Positions 1,081 to 28,945 of a stretch of 31,781 nucleotides of DNA are shown in pieces (within the stretch, counting starts at the first letter, position 1; every line of letters starts with the position of its first letter). The notes below the pieces were generated by a model. The model did not search any database. It was not told where the DNA came from and saw nothing but the letters and a program-made list of their open reading frames with translations. Position numbers and translations under genes: made by a program. The stretch is from a virus (taxonomy: Duplodnaviria; Caudoviricetes), in IMG/VR virus record IMGVR_UViG_3300025318_000032, positions 1 through 31,781 of that record; one strand, 5' to 3'.

Positions 1081-1106
1081 CTTCCCCTAGTAGTGGGTCA
1101 GTTTGA
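1081..1106 (+). repeat. Left target-site duplication and terminal inverted repeat
   Basis: CTTCCCCT then A-GTAGTGGGTCAGTTTGA. Confidence 0.9.
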
Positions 1107-1154
1107 TTTGCCGGGCCGTTGACTATGCTTGACCGCTAATGCTATCCTTGATGC

Positions 1155-1403
1155 ATGACAACCCCAAAGAAGAGGCGACCCCGCGATATCTCCCAACTTG
1201 CCGCGTCGATTGTGGCGGATGCCACGAGCGAAGAGAAGCCAATATCTGAACCGACGAAGAAGAATCCCGCAGCCGTTGCCCTCGGACGATTAGGCGGACT
1301 AAAAGGCGGAAAGGCCCGAGCGGCCAAGCTATCCGCGAAGAAGCGGAAGGAGATCGCCAAGAAGGCGGCGCAGACACGTTGGGCGAAAACGACCAAGAAG
1401 TAA
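1155..1403 (+). CDS. Small basic 'histone H1-like' protein of the type associated with IS1/IS1595-like elements
   Basis: RPRDISQLA...KNPAAVALGRLGGLKGGKARAAKLS..KRKEIAKKAAQTRW motif; K/R/A-rich. Confidence 0.8.
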   Translation: MTTPKKRRPRDISQLAASIVADATSEEKPISEPTKKNPAAVALGRLGGLKGGKARAAKLSAKKRKEIAKKAAQTRWAKTTKK

Positions 1404-1453
1404 TTTCCTAAACCTAATCTCCCTACTCTTCCCAAGCCGGTGCCCTCCTGATC

Positions 1454-1633
1454 CTAATTCTGAATAATGTCCTCCCGCCGGAACCCTATCGGCATTGGCG
1501 CTTCTTTTCCTGACATCAGCAGACCGAAGCTTTCCTCGTTCACCACATAGATGGTTTTATCGGTTTCGCTCCAAACCCGCCGCTCAAGTTGATCTCCCGT
1601 AAAGGATCTGACCACGACGATATCGCCCCTCAT
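1454..1633 (-). CDS. Small hypothetical protein (59 aa), divergent from the DUF5343-like gene
   Basis: MRGDIVVVRSFTG...PIGFRREDI; AGGGGG RBS upstream of ATG 1633. Confidence 0.6.
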   Translation of the reverse strand: MRGDIVVVRSFTGDQLERRVWSETDKTIYVVNEESFGLLMSGKEAPMPIGFRREDIIQN

Positions 1634-1771
1634 GGCGCACCCCCTTTTTTTAGACATTTTAGTCATGCCAAAAAGCAGATTCAAAAAAAGTCGGTAGACG
1701 GCAGATGGGGTATTGACATACGGATTGTGGCATGAGACTCTACCGGTATAAAAAATTGGAGGTAGACGATC

Positions 1772-2491
1772 ATGACGAAGGGCGAAACTGATGGGGGCCG
1801 GAAGCCTGTTCCTCCGTACGTCGCCTACAAATCATTTAAGAACTTCGTGGACGGGCTGCGGGGTCACGGTCTCCCTGGTCGTATTGACCGAAGCGTCATG
1901 GGAAGCCTCTCTGGCGCAACACAAACCAATATACTTCATGCACTGCGTTACTTGAAATTGACAGCAGATGACGGCAAGCCTACGGAGAAATTGACAAATC
2001 TAGTCAAGGCTCAGGGTGAAGAAAAGCAAAAATACTACAATGGTATTGTAAAGGAATCATATGTTTTTCTTTTTTCAGAAAATTTTGATCTTAAAACCGC
2101 TACTTCTAGGCAACTTGATGAGAGGTTTGAAGGGCTAGGTATTTCAGGTGATACAATACGTAAATGCGTTGCTTTCTTTATATCTATAGCAAAGGATGGG
2201 GACATACAACTTTCAAAATATATACAGAAGATACGACGACAAAGGCAACCAGGCGGAACACGCCAGAAAAAGACACATGGTCAACAGGGAAACAACGGCG
2301 CAAAGGGTGGTGAGCAAGAATTTCAGCATAGTGGTGACGAGAAACCACCCGAAGGAATGGTTCGGATACCGATATCTATTGGTATTGGCAAAATATGGAC
2401 TCTTACAATGAATCAAGACTACAACGTGGAGGATGTAGATCGGTTTGTACAAATTGTGCGCATTACATTGGGTCTTGGGGAAAAGAAATAA
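1772..2491 (+). CDS. DUF5343-like putative DNA-binding protein
   Basis: PPYVAYKSFKNF..LPGRIDRSVM..LSGATQ..ALRYLKL N-terminus recalled as DUF5343-like; GGAGG RBS; AT-rich. Confidence 0.65.
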   Translation: MTKGETDGGRKPVPPYVAYKSFKNFVDGLRGHGLPGRIDRSVMGSLSGATQTNILHALRYLKLTADDGKPTEKLTNLVKAQGEEKQKYYNGIVKESYVFLFSENFDLKTATSRQLDERFEGLGISGDTIRKCVAFFISIAKDGDIQLSKYIQKIRRQRQPGGTRQKKTHGQQGNNGAKGGEQEFQHSGDEKPPEGMVRIPISIGIGKIWTLTMNQDYNVEDVDRFVQIVRITLGLGEKK

Positions 2492-2569
2492 TGATTTCCC
2501 CTAGGAAGGAGGATCGGTAATGAAATTATTAGTGACAGGGCATCGCAGGGAGGCCCGTAAAAAACAAAG

Positions 2570-2612
2570 TGGGTGAGACGGAGTAGGCTTGGCGGTCCGC
2601 TCGTCTCACCCA
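2570..2612. ncRNA. Hairpin with UUGGCG loop (+) / CGCCAA loop plus U-tract (-)
   Basis: TGGGTGAGACG (2570-2580) pairs perfectly with CGTCTCACCCA (2602-2612); loop TTGGCG 2589-2594; followed on the minus strand by CTTTGTTTTTT. Confidence 0.65.
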
Positions 2613-2645
2613 TACCCTGCCCCCGTTAGGGGGTCACAACCTGGT

Positions 2646-2729
2646 GCCCGTGTGGTGAAACTGGCAAACACGGCGGTCTTTAAAATCGCTGGCTGGCCGG
2701 CCTTGTGGGTTCGAGTCCCACCACGGGCA
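2646..2729 (+). tRNA. Leu-type class II tRNA with UUA anticodon (putative ochre suppressor)
   Basis: Acceptor GCCCGTG/CACGGGC; D arm GTGAAACTGGCAAACAC; anticodon stem GCGGT/ATCGC with loop CT-TTA-AA; long variable arm; T arm GTGGG-TTCGAGT-CCCAC; discriminator A; CCA not encoded. Confidence 0.8.
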
Positions 2730-2735
2730 CCTTTA

Positions 2736-2765
2736 TTTATAACCCACGGTTGTATCCCGTGTCAA
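2736..2765 (-). promoter_or_regulatory. Sigma70-like promoter reading antisense into the tRNA
   Basis: Minus strand TTGACA (2765-2760), 18 bp, TATAAA (2741-2736). Confidence 0.55.
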
Positions 2766-2807
2766 GATGCATTTCCGCTCAAGCATAGCGGGGGCAGAAA
2801 ATACTTG

Positions 2808-2836
2808 TTGACATTGCTTGACCGCTCAAGCATGAT
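2808..2836 (+). promoter_or_regulatory. Transposase promoter with a palindromic operator in the spacer
   Basis: TTGACA 2808-2813, 17 bp, CATGAT 2831-2836; TGCTTGA-CCGC-TCAAGCA at 2815-2832. Confidence 0.6.
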
Positions 2837-2859
2837 GAATACATCAGGCTTGAGGGGGG

Positions 2860-3699
2860 ATGGAGATGAATAGGCTGAGCACGAAGCAGAGGGCGCAAAT
2901 CGTAGCCGCCTTGGTAGAGGGGAACTCGATCCGCGCCACGTCCCGCATGACGGGCGCGGCCAAGGGCACGGTGCTCAAGCTCCTTGCCGATCTTGGCAAG
3001 GCATGCGCGGAGTACCAGGATAAAACCTTCCACAACCTGAACTGCAAGCGCGTCCAGGTCGATGAGGTATGGAGCTTCTGTTACGCGAAGGGAAGGAATG
3101 TCCCTGAAAAATACGAGGATCAGTTTGGGTTCGGTGACGTATGGACCTTCACGGCGATTTGCGCTGATACGAAACTGGTCCCTTGTTGGAAGATTGGCCG
3201 CCGGACCGCTGAGCATGCTGCTGAGTTCATAAATAACCTCGCTGGAAGACTTGCCCACCGAATCCAACTGACATCAGACGGCTACCGAAAATATGTTGAT
3301 GCCGTGGAAAACTCCTTCTCCGGGAACGTCGATTACGCGATGCTGGTCAAGATGTACGGAAGCGAGAACAGCAATAAAAATCCTGACACCAAATATAGCC
3401 CCGCAGAATGCACAGGAACGCGAGTTGCCAAGATCAACGGAGAACCCGATCCGAAATACATATCGACCAGCTATGTGGAACGGAACAATCTTACCATGCG
3501 GATGAGCATGCGCCGATTCACGCGGCTAACGAATGCTTTCTCGAAAAAGGTGGAGAACCTGAGCCATGCCGTGAGCCTGCATTTCATGTACTACAACTTT
3601 GCGCGAATCCATCAGACGTTGAGGGTTACACCCGCGATGGAAGCGGGGGTATCGGATCACGTGTGGTCGGTGGAGGAGATCGCCTCGTTGCTAAACTGA
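2860..3699 (+). CDS. IS1-family DDE transposase (single ORF)
   Basis: N-terminal HTH (LVEGNSIRATSRMTG); acidic motifs QVDEVW, LTSDG, YVERNNLTMR; RRFTRLTNAFSKK. Confidence 0.9.
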   Translation: MEMNRLSTKQRAQIVAALVEGNSIRATSRMTGAAKGTVLKLLADLGKACAEYQDKTFHNLNCKRVQVDEVWSFCYAKGRNVPEKYEDQFGFGDVWTFTAICADTKLVPCWKIGRRTAEHAAEFINNLAGRLAHRIQLTSDGYRKYVDAVENSFSGNVDYAMLVKMYGSENSNKNPDTKYSPAECTGTRVAKINGEPDPKYISTSYVERNNLTMRMSMRRFTRLTNAFSKKVENLSHAVSLHFMYYNFARIHQTLRVTPAMEAGVSDHVWSVEEIASLLN

Positions 3700-3724
3700 C
3701 AATCAGATACCCCTTTCTCAAATA

Positions 3725-4684
3725 CTATTTCCCTACACGTTGATGCAAGTGGGCATTGCCGGGGTACTGAAACAGTCGCTTCGGAGGTGCTACTTGTCCT
3801 GTAGGATTAATAATTAATGCACTGTCCGTGATTGCAAAAACAGCCCCCTCAGAAGTGATTAATAAACCCCTTAACTTAAGGAAATTCCAATTTATTCTCT
3901 CAATCTGAAATATTGGATTTTGCCTTTCATCGACAATTTCAAAGGCAACTGGATCCCAATTTCTGTCCCATCCGCTGTTTATAACAGCGAAATTACTGGA
4001 TTTAATGACCGCAGCAACCTTTCCGCGACTTTCGTATATTGTTGCGTCGATCTTCATGTCGCCGTCTTTATCGAAATAAACCTTTAGTGGGAGATCGCCA
4101 TCAGCCTTGATCCCGATAAGTCTTTCAAATGGCACCTGCCTTTCCAGGAGTTCTGTTGGGAATGTCCCTTTGTTTGTCCCAAACTCAATCGTAAAACTGT
4201 CAGGCACGGTTCGCTTAAACCCTAGACTTTCAGGTGGTACTTCTCGGAAAGTTAACCCTGTATCAACATCTTTTTGTTTCGATTGCGCGGGAGAAGGAGA
4301 TGTTTTACTCGGGTGTGGAGTCTGTTTAGTTTCTGGCTGTGCCTTCTCGGGTTGCCGTGTTGCTTGCGGCGAAGGAATTTCCGGCAGTGTGGTCACCTCA
4401 TCGGTTAGTTTAGGTCGTTCGGCTTGGGCAGGATGTTTTATAGATTGTTTCCATGCCAATCCTGCGGCGATACATCCTACAACTCCTCCAATAATTACAA
4501 TCGGCCATAATGAAACTTTCATGGCTACATACTCCAAGGTAATCGTTGTGAGGCCATATATTAAAAAAGCGATGGCAAAAATCCCAAGAATTAGTCTCAT
4601 CAGAATAGTCCTTGGGGGGAAAACCGCAAACCATATGGTTGCGCCGATACCAACCGATAAGGTGGCGATTTCGCTTCCTTGCAA
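3725..4684 (-). CDS. Passenger membrane protein (about 3 N-terminal TMs, Pro-rich linker, soluble C-terminal domain)
   Basis: Three hydrophobic stretches; TTG at 4684 behind GGGAG RBS; AT-rich. Confidence 0.7.
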   Translation of the reverse strand: MQGSEIATLSVGIGATIWFAVFPPRTILMRLILGIFAIAFLIYGLTTITLEYVAMKVSLWPIVIIGGVVGCIAAGLAWKQSIKHPAQAERPKLTDEVTTLPEIPSPQATRQPEKAQPETKQTPHPSKTSPSPAQSKQKDVDTGLTFREVPPESLGFKRTVPDSFTIEFGTNKGTFPTELLERQVPFERLIGIKADGDLPLKVYFDKDGDMKIDATIYESRGKVAAVIKSSNFAVINSGWDRNWDPVAFEIVDERQNPIFQIERINWNFLKLRGLLITSEGAVFAITDSALIINPTGQVAPPKRLFQYPGNAHLHQRVGK

Positions 4685-4785
4685 ACCTTTTCTCCCCCAT
4701 ACGAGACCGATCCTAATTCGCGCATCATATCGCGGACACCACGCCAAGTGAACAACCATTGCCTGACCTCTCAAGCACACGCATC

Positions 4786-4811
4786 TCAAACTGACCCACT
4801 ACCCTTCCCCT
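4786..4811 (+). repeat. Right terminal inverted repeat and target-site duplication
   Basis: TCAAACTGACCCACTAC-C then CTTCCCCT. Confidence 0.9.
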
Positions 4812-10396: not shown

Positions 10397-11176
10397 CTAC
10401 TTCTCCTTCCACTCCCCGGAGATGAGATTCGTCGGTTTCTTTTTGGCAACAACCAGGGCGTGTTTTGACCAGTTTGAAATTTTGATTCGGACGCCTGCGA
10501 AAATGCCGTAGCCCTCACCGGCCTTGATGCCCTCACCGGCCTTGATGCCCGAACCGGCCTCGATGCCCTCACCGGCCTCGATGCCCTCACCGGCCTCGAT
10601 GCCCTCACCGGCCTTGATGCCCCAACCGGCCTCGATGCCCTCACCGGCCTCGATGCCCTCACCGGCCTCGATGTCCCAACCGGCCTCGATGCCCCAACCG
10701 GCCTCGATGCCCTCACCGGCCTCGATGCCCCAACCGGCCTCGATGCCCTCACCGGCCTCGATGCCCTCACCGGCCTCGATGCCCTCACCGGCCTCGATGC
10801 CCTCACCGGCCTTGATGCCCGAACCGGCCTCGATGCCCGAACCGGCCTTGATGCCCGAACCGGCCTTGATGCCCGAACCGGCCTTGATGCCCGAACCGGC
10901 CAAAAAATGCCCGGCGACTTTTATGGATTCCGAAATTTCAACTCGGCCCGCGAAGTACAGGCCAAAATGCGCCTCATAGTCGCCATTGATTTTCAGGACA
11001 GTACCGGCAGGACCGGCGGTAGACAACAGCCACGATCCCCACGACGACAGGTTTTCGTGGGCTAGCGCGTCAAGGACGGCTTGGTATCCGCCGCCTGCGG
11101 GGAAGTTGCGCTGAAACCATTCGACGCCATCGGCGCAGGCATTTTTTTCTTTTAGCCATTCGAGTGTGATTTGCAT
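10397..11176 (-). CDS. Phage protein with AGxGI[K/E] hexapeptide repeats (predicted beta-solenoid)
   Basis: [18 protein letters not shown]-terminal domain then 21 repeats. Confidence 0.8.
10511..10900 (-). repeat. 18-bp coding tandem repeat, 21 full copies plus a partial
   Basis: Unit GCCGGT(TCG/GAG/TGG)GGCATC(AAG/GAG), no spacers. Confidence 0.95.
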
Positions 11177-11529
11177 TTCCCTTCTTCCTCCCTGAAATCT
11201 TTCGATGGATTGAACCAATCGTCTTTTACGATGTGGCCGATGGCCTCGATGGGGCCAGAATAGGCCCCCCTAACCCTCACCGTCTTTCCTTTTAGTTTTG
11301 ACCATTCGGTAACTCCCGCGATTTCCATTACGCGCCAGATGAAATGACCAGCGACGGATCCCAATTTGTGATGCGTAAAACTTTTCGGGAGATAGAGGGC
11401 GTATCCGCCGAAGCCTTGACCGGAACCTCCGTAGTCAAGATAGACCCATGCAGACAGGCACCCGTGGTCATCGCTCGTTATTGTGGCACTCTCGATGACT
11501 GCATTCTTGATTTCCACGCCCATCTTCAC
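11152..11529 (-). CDS. Conserved phage hypothetical protein
   Basis: IKNAVIES...[23 protein letters not shown]...[13 protein letters not shown]. Confidence 0.75.
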
Positions 11530-13532: not shown

Positions 13533-13609
13533 TGGTACTCGGGGAGGGAGTCGAACCCTCATGTAAGGCGGGTTTAAGCCGCCCGCGTATGCCATTCCGC
13601 CACCCGAGT
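13533..13609 (-). tRNA. tRNA-Leu(UAA) with a short variable region
   Basis: ACTCGGG/CCCGAGT acceptor; D arm GCGGAATGGCATACGC; GGCGG-CT-TAA-AC-CCGCC; GAGGG-TTCGACT-CCCTC; ACCA encoded. Confidence 0.9.
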
Positions 13610-26529: not shown

Positions 26530-28402
26530 CGGTGCGGTCGCCTACGGAGGTTCGTTCCGGGAGGGCCTGAAGCCCGATCCCCTCCTGACCGTCTCGGAGT
26601 GGGCGGACAGGGAGCGAATCCTCCCGCCGGTGTCATCCGCCGAGCCGGGGCAGTGGCGCACCTCCCGCACGCCGTATTTACGGGAGATCATGGATTGCCT
26701 TTCTCCGTCTTCTCCGGTCCAGCGCGTGACCTTCATGAAGGGATCGCAGATCGGGGCGACGGAAAGCGGGAATAACTGGATCGGGTACGTCATCGCGATG
26801 GCGCCGGGGCCGATGCTGGCCGTCCAGCCGAACCTGGACATGGCGAAGCGGTTCTCGAAGCAGCGCGTTCAACCCACGATCCGGAATACCCCCGCGCTGC
26901 AAGGGAAGGTGAAAGACGCCCGGGTGCGGGATTCCGGGAACACAATTCTCGTCAAGCAGTTCCCCGGCGGGATCCTGGTCATCACCGGGGCGGAATCGGC
27001 AACAAGTTTGCGGTCTATGCCGGCGCGTTACCTGTTCATGGACGAGATCGACCCATACCCCGACGATTGCGGCGGGGAAGGCGACCCGTGCGGGCTGGCC
27101 GAGGCGCGTACGGCAACGTTCTCTTCCCGGAAGAAGATTTTCGAGACATCGACTCCAACGGAGGCGGGGCGGTCCCGGATCGAGAGGCGGTACGAATTAT
27201 CCGACAAGCGTCGGTATTTCGTCCCCTGCCCGTTCTGCAAGGGTGAGCAGTGGCTCAAGTGGGGGCAGATCGTATTCGAGAAGGACGAGAAGTACCGGCT
27301 CACAAGTCCGGTCCGTTATAAGTGCGAGCATTGCGGCGAACCGATCGATGAGCGGTACAAGACCTGGATGCTCGAATCCGGGCGGTGGATCGCCGAGGCG
27401 CCTGGGCGCGGGAAGCCCGCGGGGTTTTTCCTCTCTTCCCTCTATTCGCCGCTCGGCTGGCTCTCATGGGACGCCATCGCGCAGGAGTTCCTGGACGCCA
27501 GGAAGACCCGGGACGTCTCCGCGCTGAAAGTATGGACGAATACGAAGCTCGCCGAAGTATGGGAAGAGGAAGGACTCGTCATCGACGACGGGACGCTCCT
27601 TTCCCGGCGCGAGAAGTACCCGGCCTCTATTCCGGCGGGCGGGCTCGTCCTCACGATCGGCGTCGACATTCAGGCAGACCGCATCGAGGCATCCGTCGAC
27701 GCATGGGGCAAGCACGAGGAAAGCTGGCTGATCGAATACGCCATATTCCGCGGGAGTCCGGAAACAGACCTGAAGGTGTGGGAGGACCTGAGAATCCTCC
27801 TGGATCGCTCGTGGGATCAGGAGTTGGGCCTGTCCCTGCGGATCGCGGCGGGCTGCGTCGATTCGGGTCACGCGACCAGTCAGGTCTACAAGTTCGTCCG
27901 CAGTCTCGAGCATCGTCGCGTTTACGCGGTCAAGGGGCAGGGGGGCAAAGGACTCCCGGTCATCCGGATCTCCGAGAAGCGCAACAAGGCCGGGATCAAA
28001 CTGGGGCTGGTCGGCGTGGATACCTGCAAGTCGTTGATCTATTCCAGGGTAATGCTTCCCGACTTCGGCCCGGGATACATGCATTTCCCCATGTCGGTCG
28101 GTGAGGACTACTTCTCCGGGTTGACTGCGGAGAAGCGAGTCATCCGGAAGGTGCGCGGGAAGGAAATCGAGGAGTGGGTAAAGGTCCGCGCGCGGAATGA
28201 ACCACTGGATTGTTTCGTGTATTCGCACGCTGCGCTGGACCTACTGAAGATCCGGGATTGGGACCGGCTGGCGTCGAACATCGAGCGGCAGGTGGAAAAA
28301 GAAAAACCAGGGAAAGAAGAAGAGGGACCGAAGACGCAAGGCACAGAGATGCCGGTTCCTATGCGTGTGCCCCGAAAGGGTTGGTCCGCAACCAAGTGGT
28401 AA
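26510..28402 (+). CDS. Terminase large subunit, GpA family
   Basis: TVSEWAD, RTPYLREIM, KGSQIGATE, MDEID, STPT, GVDIQ, DSG, RNEPLDC. Confidence 0.97.
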   Translation: MSSRQIDGAVAYGGSFREGLKPDPLLTVSEWADRERILPPVSSAEPGQWRTSRTPYLREIMDCLSPSSPVQRVTFMKGSQIGATESGNNWIGYVIAMAPGPMLAVQPNLDMAKRFSKQRVQPTIRNTPALQGKVKDARVRDSGNTILVKQFPGGILVITGAESATSLRSMPARYLFMDEIDPYPDDCGGEGDPCGLAEARTATFSSRKKIFETSTPTEAGRSRIERRYELSDKRRYFVPCPFCKGEQWLKWGQIVFEKDEKYRLTSPVRYKCEHCGEPIDERYKTWMLESGRWIAEAPGRGKPAGFFLSSLYSPLGWLSWDAIAQEFLDARKTRDVSALKVWTNTKLAEVWEEEGLVIDDGTLLSRREKYPASIPAGGLVLTIGVDIQADRIEASVDAWGKHEESWLIEYAIFRGSPETDLKVWEDLRILLDRSWDQELGLSLRIAAGCVDSGHATSQVYKFVRSLEHRRVYAVKGQGGKGLPVIRISEKRNKAGIKLGLVGVDTCKSLIYSRVMLPDFGPGYMHFPMSVGEDYFSGLTAEKRVIRKVRGKEIEEWVKVRARNEPLDCFVYSHAALDLLKIRDWDRLASNIERQVEKEKPGKEEEGPKTQGTEMPVPMRVPRKGWSATKW

Positions 28403-28411
28403 GGAGCGCCG

Positions 28412-28945
28412 ATGAATATTCCGAGCACGATCACCGCGGGAGATACCATCGCCTGGACAGACTCCCTCGCCGATTATCCAGCGACGACGTGGACGCTGAA
28501 GTATTCGCTTTGGAAGTATGGCCAGGCCGTCATCGGCATCACGGCATCGGCTTCAGGATCCGATCATGCCGTATCGGTCGCCCCCGCCGTGTCGACCGCC
28601 TATGCCGCCGGGGACTGGCAGTGGACCGCCTACGTCGAGAAGGGATCCGGCGGGACGCTGGAGCGGTACACGGTCGCGACGGGGAGGGTGACGATCAAGC
28701 CGAATGTCGCGGCGGCATCTTCCTCGGCGGACTTTCGGTCGCACGCGGAGAAGATGCTCACCGGCATCGAGGCCACCTTGCAGGGTCGCGCCACCCGCGC
28801 CGAGATGTCCCTCACCATCAACGGGAAGGCGATCCAGTATCTGAAGCCGGATGAACTGGAGCGGTGGCGGTCTATCTACCGGCGGGTCGTTAGTAAGGAG
28901 AAAGGCGAGAGTTCCATCGTCGGAATCCAATTCGGGAGCGCGTGA
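28412..28945 (+). CDS. Head-tail joining (gpW-like C-terminus) protein
   Basis: Between terminase and portal; SHAEKMLTGIEATL..SLTINGKAIQY. Confidence 0.7.
   Translation: MNIPSTITAGDTIAWTDSLADYPATTWTLKYSLWKYGQAVIGITASASGSDHAVSVAPAVSTAYAAGDWQWTAYVEKGSGGTLERYTVATGRVTIKPNVAAASSSADFRSHAEKMLTGIEATLQGRATRAEMSLTINGKAIQYLKPDELERWRSIYRRVVSKEKGESSIVGIQFGSA

Follow-up and report, generated by a model that had tools for sequence, protein, structure and literature searches.

Natural tRNAs whose anticodon does not match the identity of the body have been described in several systems. Mukai et al. (PMC5389517) list in their supplement 16 rows under 'polycistronic tRNAs', from soil and peat metatranscriptomes, as 'tRNA2, tRNALeu (7/5)' with the anticodon UUA; they stand in polycistrons with other irregular tRNAs (tRNA0 or tRNA1) and are ascribed to acidobacteria. 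The available text of that article proposes that they act as nonsense or missense suppressors and are linked to toxin-antitoxin loci; in it, some allo-tRNAs are reported to mistranslate and kill E. coli, and no test of the tRNA2 group was found; 'transpos' and 'IS1' gave 0 matches in the available supplement. Allo-tRNAs have Ser or Ala identity and an 8/4 or 9/3 fold, with a mismatch between body and anticodon, diverse anticodons including UUA, and transposon or toxin-antitoxin neighbours (PMC5389517; the allo-tRNA part is restated in the accessible part of a review, PMC7609411). No mention of allo-tRNA, toxin or transposon occurs in the available part of PMC11415595. A mistranslating tRNA-Pro family (PMC10404621, available text) likewise consists of natural tRNAs with an anticodon that does not match their identity. 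Stop-recoding suppressors of phages (UAG, UGA; PMC12636597, available text) carry a stop-matching anticodon on a normal body and serve genes with in-frame stops, and where bacteria with the standard code have natural suppressor tRNAs, these are usually taken for patches of nonsense mutations (accessible part of PMC13092985). Our literature search returned neither a tRNA as cargo of IS1/IS1595 elements nor any work on Leu tRNAs that IS elements carry with an exchanged anticodon, most subscription papers lying outside that search. Elements of the IS1/IS1595 type with passenger genes, which we take to be the ISMhu11-like group, have a DDE transposase, short inverted repeats, an 8-bp duplication and cargo on both sides, as was found here. 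Laboratory ochre suppressors are single-step mutants with a stop-matching anticodon on a normal body, and the tRNA-Pro family is said to have Pro identity, to read sense codons and to be tied to a dedicated synthetase in Streptomyces; the element described below has no synthetase.

The window analysed here, a whole stretch of 31,781 bases, is a virus record with a lambda-type terminase and portal. At 2646–2729 (+) it carries a Leu-bodied 7/5 tRNA with the anticodon UUA at 2680–2682, as deduced from ARAGORN, Rfam and parsed features. ARAGORN called a tRNA-Stop with the anticodon tta at 2646–2731 (+), and the Rfam RF00005 match covered 2646–2729 with 56.6 bits (cut-off 29, E 7.4e-10). The parsed acceptor stem (7/7), T-stem (5/5) and anticodon stem (5/5, including one G-U) were fully paired, the variable region was 15 nt, and the bases U31-A39, C32, U33, A37, A38, A14, A15, U48 and A73 were present. 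In E. coli, according to the available text of PMC9976931, the Leu identity elements are A73, A15-U48, G18G19 and A20a, and the anticodon is not among them. All of these, together with the long variable arm of the bacterial tRNA-Leu identity set, were found in the window tRNA; a Leu anticodon (NAA or NAG) was absent and UUA stood in its place. Judged by its bases, the tRNA is a predicted Leu acceptor by body and not a Leu decoder. The original prediction of a Leu-type cloverleaf with a UUA anticodon was thus borne out by both programs and by the parsed stems and identity bases, with the stop-type call at the expected place. The 3′ end reads A-C-C-U, so that CCA is only partly encoded; it is encoded in 45 of 89 well-formed UUA relatives. 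The 27-43 pair is closed in the window tRNA and open in 41 of the 89. The minimum-energy fold of the unmodified strand (ViennaRNA) was a long hairpin, not the cloverleaf, and the fold energies were -37.4 kcal/mol for the plus strand and -30.7 kcal/mol for the minus strand (z -1.93). Two other assignments did not match. A tRNA-Tyr-derived ochre suppressor would have a Tyr-type D arm and variable-arm junction, but the D arm and the A15-U48 pair found here are those of ordinary Leu tRNAs; an allo-tRNA does not fit because the tRNA is 7/5 with A73, not 8/4 or 9/3 with G73 or U73.

Compared with the group of Mukai et al., the window tRNA shares the 7/5 Leu body, A73 and UUA, and one tRNA2 row in the available supplement has, by eye, an identical D arm and the same anticodon-arm core. 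Unlike that group, it is solitary, lies behind a DUF5343 gene and is enclosed in a bounded IS1-like element, in which ARAGORN and Rfam found no companion tRNA. About a dozen relatives do have a companion, as in the Mukai polycistrons; irregular tRNAs were seen 75-110 nt upstream in L099, L116, L134, L147, L149, L154, L158, L173, L182, L189, L221 and L227, and downstream in L124, L130 and L181, that of L130 being Ser-type with UUA. The Leu 7/5 UUA tRNA type is already listed in the available supplement of Mukai et al. (PMC5389517); the present analysis contributes an IS1 example with fresh ends, a census, an anticodon spectrum that avoids Leu, and the codon avoidance of the partner gene.

The IS1-like element that contains the tRNA spans 3,715 bp (1089–4803). 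Its ends are inverted repeats (1090–1111 against 4781–4802, within terminal repeats annotated at 1089–1111 (+) and 4781–4803 (-)), and it is flanked by a target-site duplication, the 8-bp direct repeat CTTCCCCT at 1081–1088 (left copy) and 4804–4811 (right copy). The inverted repeats and the exact 8-bp duplication around the tRNA confirmed that it is transposon-borne. The transposase gene (2860–3699 (+)) is intact and ends with TGA; the protein matched Pfam DDE_Tnp_IS1 (PF03400) with 28.6 bits (cut-off 24.1), and because NCBIfam IS1 was its best match (E 5e-15) yet stayed below the cut-off, it is classed from these profiles as a divergent member of the IS1 family. An IS1-type DDE transposase, terminal inverted repeats and an 8-bp target duplication, the marks of that family, were all found. 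A sigma-70-like promoter of the transposase was predicted 3′ of the tRNA (2808–2836 (+), with a 10/12 consensus match only). A 21-nt imperfect palindrome (1123–1143, with copies at 2765, 2812 and 4757) is likely to be a transposase binding site, because it is present at both ends of the element and over the transposase promoter. Besides the transposase and the tRNA, the element has four other ORFs, and its genes are intact under the standard code: a basic small protein of 82 aa (1155–1403 (+)), a recurrent passenger of these elements without a Pfam or NCBIfam family; a 70-aa ORF of no family (1454–1666 (-)), divergent from the DUF5343 gene; the DUF5343 protein of 239 aa (1772–2491 (+)); and a cargo ORF with an N-terminal hydrophobic segment and no family (3725–4525 (-)). 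In runs X4, X17 and X20, the ends of the element ran on into other flanks, and therefore several sites in that community carry the element; the contigs of the runs searched showed no empty-site joint for the phage.

Directly 5′ of the tRNA, two stable hairpins were found (2569–2637 (+), z -3.93). The first is preceded by an A-run and is terminator-like on the minus strand, and the pair possibly serves as a leader or as antisense control. Terminator-like sites were present on the minus strand in 38 of 88 relatives, some of the 38 being arms of companion tRNAs, and on the plus strand in 10 of 88. The promoter scan found no consensus promoter directly 5′ of the tRNA or of the DUF5343 gene; TTGACA with a poor -10 was read from the sequence at 1713. 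Just 5′ of the tRNA in L176, L183, L185 and L405, a common two-hairpin leader with UCCAAA-like loops was observed, possibly a regulatory RNA or a degenerate tRNA.

The tRNA was letter-identical in three other viral assemblies of the same phage and unchanged in contigs of six runs (assembled contigs, not raw reads). No RNA run containing the stretch turned up, an outcome neutral as to expression. Contigs with the identical tRNA came from X1 and X4, both possible sources of the stretch, and an 88-nt contig of the tRNA was recovered from X13, X17, X18 and X20 at depths of 34, 30, 26 and 14, X13 being a possible source of the stretch and the other three not so marked. In these four runs, a second contig differed at 13 letters and 4 gaps in the 114 nt before 2673 and ended on the same word as the window element, while the tRNA contig showed no difference in the pieces listed; a second element with an unchanged tRNA is apparently present there. 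Relatives with the anticodon UGA also occurred in the runs at low depth (3.3 and 5.1), and an error may account for one of them. As far as contigs allow, a sequencing error in the anticodon was excluded by the same letters in six runs. That the tRNA is an erroneous or decaying copy of an ordinary tRNA-Leu is hardly credible. UUA is one change from UAA, and some rows of the census described below are damaged copies (10 of 99 UUA and all 9 UCA rows failed the structure filter), as such a reading would have it; against it stand, besides the six runs, the intact stems, the diverged 5′ sequence of the second element next to what is apparently the same tRNA, and the same loop kept in 87 distinct relatives with a median identity of 73%. 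Comparison among these sequences indicates that the tRNA is real and selected, not an error.

A census was performed with a pattern comprising a Leu-type D arm and the anticodon UUA, CUA, UCA or CCA. It yielded 25 viral and 120 genome loci (45 of 64 parts scanned; about 170 estimated), or 142 rows after removal of 3 duplicates; the structure filter removed 26 rows (10 with UUA), and the well-formed tRNAs comprised 89 UUA, 21 CUA, 6 CCA and 0 UCA. A73 was present in 89/89 well-formed UUA tRNAs, though the pattern did not require it. Among 87 distinct UUA sequences, 97.5% of stem cells paired and 16 of 20 pairs showed compensatory change; the rows had already been selected for pairing, which discarded 10 of 99 UUA rows and favours this result. 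The record titles cover alpha-, beta-, gamma- and deltaproteobacteria, Acidobacteriota, Gemmatimonadetes, Planctomycetes, Nitrospinaceae and others, and the module was found in the named isolates Rhodovulum marinum DSM 18063, Roseovarius salinarum N53, Dyella flava DHOC52 and Mesorhizobium helmanticense. Among 66 UUA loci with long flanks, 47, the window element included, had a transposase within 4 kb (IS1595 in 32 and IS1 in 15, family names verified on two and one proteins, respectively); 19 had neither, two of which had another DDE transposase. The IS link was weaker in viral contigs (6/13). Of 53 loci with a transposase, 32 had the tRNA enclosed between inverted repeats with an 8-bp duplication, vs 5 of 200 chimeric controls, and in 29 of the 32 the repeats had at least 15/18 matches. 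Ordinary Leu tRNAs were never near an IS transposase (0/47), a weak control given that UUA rows in the same viral set were so in only 1/6. With the tRNA as query, annotated phages returned only one ordinary Leu tRNA, and ARAGORN at relaxed thresholds gave mostly noise. Two viral contigs (L290 and L297) had Leu-like bodies with a UGA (Ser) anticodon and no IS1/IS1595 transposase nearby.

Through the transposase, 64 other loci were found, one of which (L015 = L088) carries in the corresponding position a Leu-UUA tRNA with 61% identity to that of the window, in an element of 1,323 bp with scant room for a partner gene. Four of the 64 have other tRNAs in that place, and the tRNA is an occasional passenger of these IS1-like elements. 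Other apparently mismatched tRNAs were noted in the slot 5′ of IS1-like transposases (L010:2679-2753, L060:3540-3629, L040 and L031; also L075:1602-1676 and L085:3452-3527); by eye they are Arg-like bodies with CGG, GCU or ACU anticodons, and one is long-armed with UAU.

In 23 loci, a protein of 130 aa (a long helix and a winged helix) is encoded 3′ of the tRNA. A metagenome search blind to the tRNA was performed with an alignment of 20 of the 23 partner proteins, and 80 of 93 loci were kept, 69 after deduplication. A tRNA lay directly upstream in 57 of these; 6 had none and 6 were too short. The query was built from UUA neighbours, which inflates the UUA share but could not by itself have kept Leu anticodons out. 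The anticodons of the 57 were UUA (28), UCC (12), ACC (3), UGA (3), UGG (2), UGC (2) and, once each, GUA, CCC, GUC, GCC, UCA, CCA and GGA, 13 anticodons in total. None of the 57 had a Leu anticodon, and A35 was likewise absent. The Leu D arm, long variable arm and A73 were present in all 56 distinct tRNAs, and U48 in 55. At least 19 anticodon switches were counted on the partner tree; UUA to UAA, which would give a harmless Leu tRNA, is one step away and was unseen. Since 57 tRNAs lack a Leu anticodon after at least 19 switches, what is selected appears from the comparison to be a tRNA with a Leu body and no Leu decoding. As the anticodon of the cassette is elsewhere one for Gly, Ser, Pro, Ala, Asp, Tyr or Trp, 'mistranslating tRNA' is a better frame, ochre being the commonest form found. 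Of the original prediction, Leu identity, mobility and selection of a stop anticodon are upheld by this comparative evidence, regulated readthrough of one gene is disfavoured, and a toxin or abortive-infection role stays hypothetical.

Sequence signs of decoding were sought in the partner gene. The share of GGA among its Gly codons was 12/133 beside UCC tRNAs vs 65/266 beside UUA tRNAs at similar GC3, and it ended with TAA in 4/28 cases beside UUA tRNAs vs 11/29 otherwise (p 0.07). When each sequence cluster was counted once per anticodon, the joint codon deficit came to 0.16-0.18, and permutation gave p values of 0.006, 0.012 and 0.0015 with clusters at 70, 60 and 50%, respectively; at 50%, the deficit in GGA by itself was no longer significant (p 0.12). 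The test was post hoc and concerned the IS1595 partner, not the DUF5343 protein of the window, and it suggests indirectly that the partner gene under-uses the codon that its own tRNA would misread. Transposases showed avoidance neither of GGA nor of TAA, which ended 17/29 IS1595 and 2/11 IS1 transposases of UUA elements vs 15/62 of the IS1 comparison set. The DUF5343 gene ends with TAA followed at once by TGA, a single case. Together, the anticodon spectrum and the partner's codon avoidance point to mistranslation as the selected trait, and not to readthrough of one gene.

An RNA that is folded or even charged and yet does not decode, acting as a decoy or antitoxin for the neighbouring protein or a host nuclease, or as a processing signal, is an unlikely explanation that still has to be reckoned with; non-Leu anticodons would then merely keep the RNA out of normal translation. 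Inactive irregular tRNAs are known: in the available text of Mukai et al., six allo-tRNA(UAU) variants were inactive in translation and two His-type companions were charged and unused (PMC5389517). Near-background UAA readthrough was seen for 20/20 phage UUA tRNAs in an E. coli cell-free assay, 11 of the 20 being low-confidence calls (PMC12636597, available text); the result bears on the window tRNA indirectly. The presence of PemK, Gp49-HTH and MqsA toxin-antitoxin genes in some elements and the position of the tRNA 15-30 nt before the partner start in the IS1595 branch would also fit. A non-decoding RNA would not, however, account for the lack of the harmless Leu anticodon in 57/57 cases or for partner codon use that tracks the anticodon, the features typical of ribosomal use are kept, and the window transposase has its own predicted promoter. 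According to the available text of PMC13092985, 4-bp anticodon stems occur in 20.5% of tRNA-Sup(UUA), and readthrough gains are cited for such unpinning.

The CUA sisters of the tRNA, analogues outside IS elements, point the other way. In two phages, the in-frame TAGs of neighbouring genes aligned to Leu in homologues in 6/6 cases (one also to Met), and therefore it appears that Leu-bodied tRNAs with a stop anticodon are used in decoding in nature. In these viral contigs (L089 and L096), the Leu-bodied CUA tRNA stands directly 3′ of a phage DNA polymerase gene, with a span from ~3.1 kb before to 3 kb after the tRNA and intact homologues in L104 and L125; they are candidates for amber-to-leucine reading, of which our literature search returned no report in such phages. 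With these amber sisters as a model, the window tRNA might be a dedicated suppressor that lets a gene of the element or phage be read through at a programmed UAA, or that recodes ochre, which we regard as very unlikely. TAA ends two element genes, that of the 82-aa protein included (readthrough would append Leu and 15 aa), and also the terminase gene, in frame with the next gene. The exchange of sense-codon anticodons in the same cassette nevertheless disfavours readthrough of one gene. Moreover, the element genes are intact under the standard code and none of them needs UAA readthrough, the element inserts at several sites, the TAA of DUF5343 is backed by TGA, and the partner gene avoids the target codon instead of using it. 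The same appears to hold for the phage: no window gene seems to need a suppressor, unlike the genes served by the phage suppressors (PMC12636597, available text), and no in-frame target stops were found in terminase and portal, which are full length under code 11. TAA ends 9 of 37 greedily called genes of the carrier phage, terminase included. At the terminase TAA (28400–28414), readthrough would fuse the terminase with the following gene, and the element could harm its own carrier.

Weak constitutive decoding, in which a low level of readthrough or mistranslation would make the host phenotypically diverse or tolerant of stress, with no kill switch, is doubtful. It would fit the mostly GC-rich hosts (median flank GC 0.58 in 66 loci), in which TAA ends only 15/88 long flank ORFs, and transposases that retain TAA. 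Partial suppression is probable, because release factors compete at UAA. A mistranslating tRNA-Pro family has also been reported (PMC10404621, available text). Leu in place of Gly, Pro, Ser or Asp would, however, be disruptive and the conservative A35 anticodons are absent, while the cargo slot otherwise holds conflict genes.

We favour, over a decoy, mild mistranslation, dedicated readthrough and artefact, a deliberately mistranslating Leu tRNA that is a conditional toxin under its partner's control, a reading drawn from sequence comparison to which we give about an even chance. It is favoured because the targets are exchangeable, conflict genes share the cargo slot and the partner has a winged helix. 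Against it count the near-background readthrough of phage UUA tRNAs, the inactive irregular tRNAs of Mukai et al., the TAA stops kept by transposases and by genes of the carrier phage, the loose tie of DUF5343 to tRNAs, the scant room for a partner in L015 and the weaker IS link in viral contigs. Charged by host LeuRS, the tRNA would place leucine at UAA stops and, by wobble of U34, perhaps at UAG as well. Proteins ending at UAA would gain C-terminal extensions. The neighbouring DNA-binding protein would hold the tRNA in check by repression or as an antidote, and the element would benefit through addiction or by spoiling phage protein synthesis, the trigger being perhaps loss of the element, perhaps phage infection. 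That GC-rich hosts would be spared and AT-rich phages hit is conceivable, this having been considered from flank composition only. In a wider form, which is put forward tentatively and would surprise us less if wrong than if right, IS1/IS1595 elements across many phyla would spread a retargetable Leu-tRNA toxin with a winged-helix partner purged of the target codon. If so, its release on phage infection or element loss would corrupt the genetic code of the cell, and the module would represent a toxin-antitoxin or anti-phage class with a tRNA effector and a natural mobile source of code ambiguity, ochre included. In this family, tRNAs of the suppressor type are selected cargo that mobile elements carry, and their targets can be exchanged. 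If they decode, the family would allow a direct test of bacterial mistranslation as a weapon or a stress tool, and would offer a vehicle for the sideways spread of ambiguous decoding and evolved ochre readers for code engineering.

In the window, the place of the partner is taken by the DUF5343 protein, whose Pfam match (E 2.7e-5) was below the cut-off and which was also matched in Atlas. A tandem winged-helix DNA-binding fold is predicted for it (model pLDDT 81); the VIA Z values were 6.9 for FokI, 5.7 for BrxA and 5.5 for SspB, all middling, and a weak PADLOC match to PDC-M34A was obtained (E 3.6e-6). Foldseek gave no match at E 0.001 for this model or for that of the 130-aa partner. On the model, DUF5343 is a candidate regulator or antidote. 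Among close relatives found independently, 3/6 had an allo-type tRNA behind them (two UAU and one UUA, partly by eye), and none of 45 distant relatives had an irregular tRNA there. A strict linkage between all DUF5343 genes and tRNAs was not found (6 of 59 loci had no profile match), and as a single query DUF5343 had no match in genome contigs or plasmids.

The cargo survey drew on 34 bounded elements with 113 ORFs, of which 75 proteins were selected. In related IS1-like elements, the same slot held restriction or methylase genes (4 elements), Panacea antitoxin domains (3), IrrE-type peptidase regulators (HTH-IrrE, 8) and P63C (6). IS1-like elements with uniform ends and conflict-type cargo (L007–L070) were common in phages, ends being found in 34/62 loci.

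Outside the element, the phage has a second tRNA at 13533–13609 (-) with the anticodon UAA, a Leu-type D arm, A73 and an encoded CCA. It is only 77 nt long with a short variable loop, and is an ARAGORN call below the Rfam gathering score; short-armed Leu(UAG) genes that resemble it occur among ordinary viral Leu tRNAs. A phage ORF at 10397–11218 (-) contains a long array of six-residue repeats.
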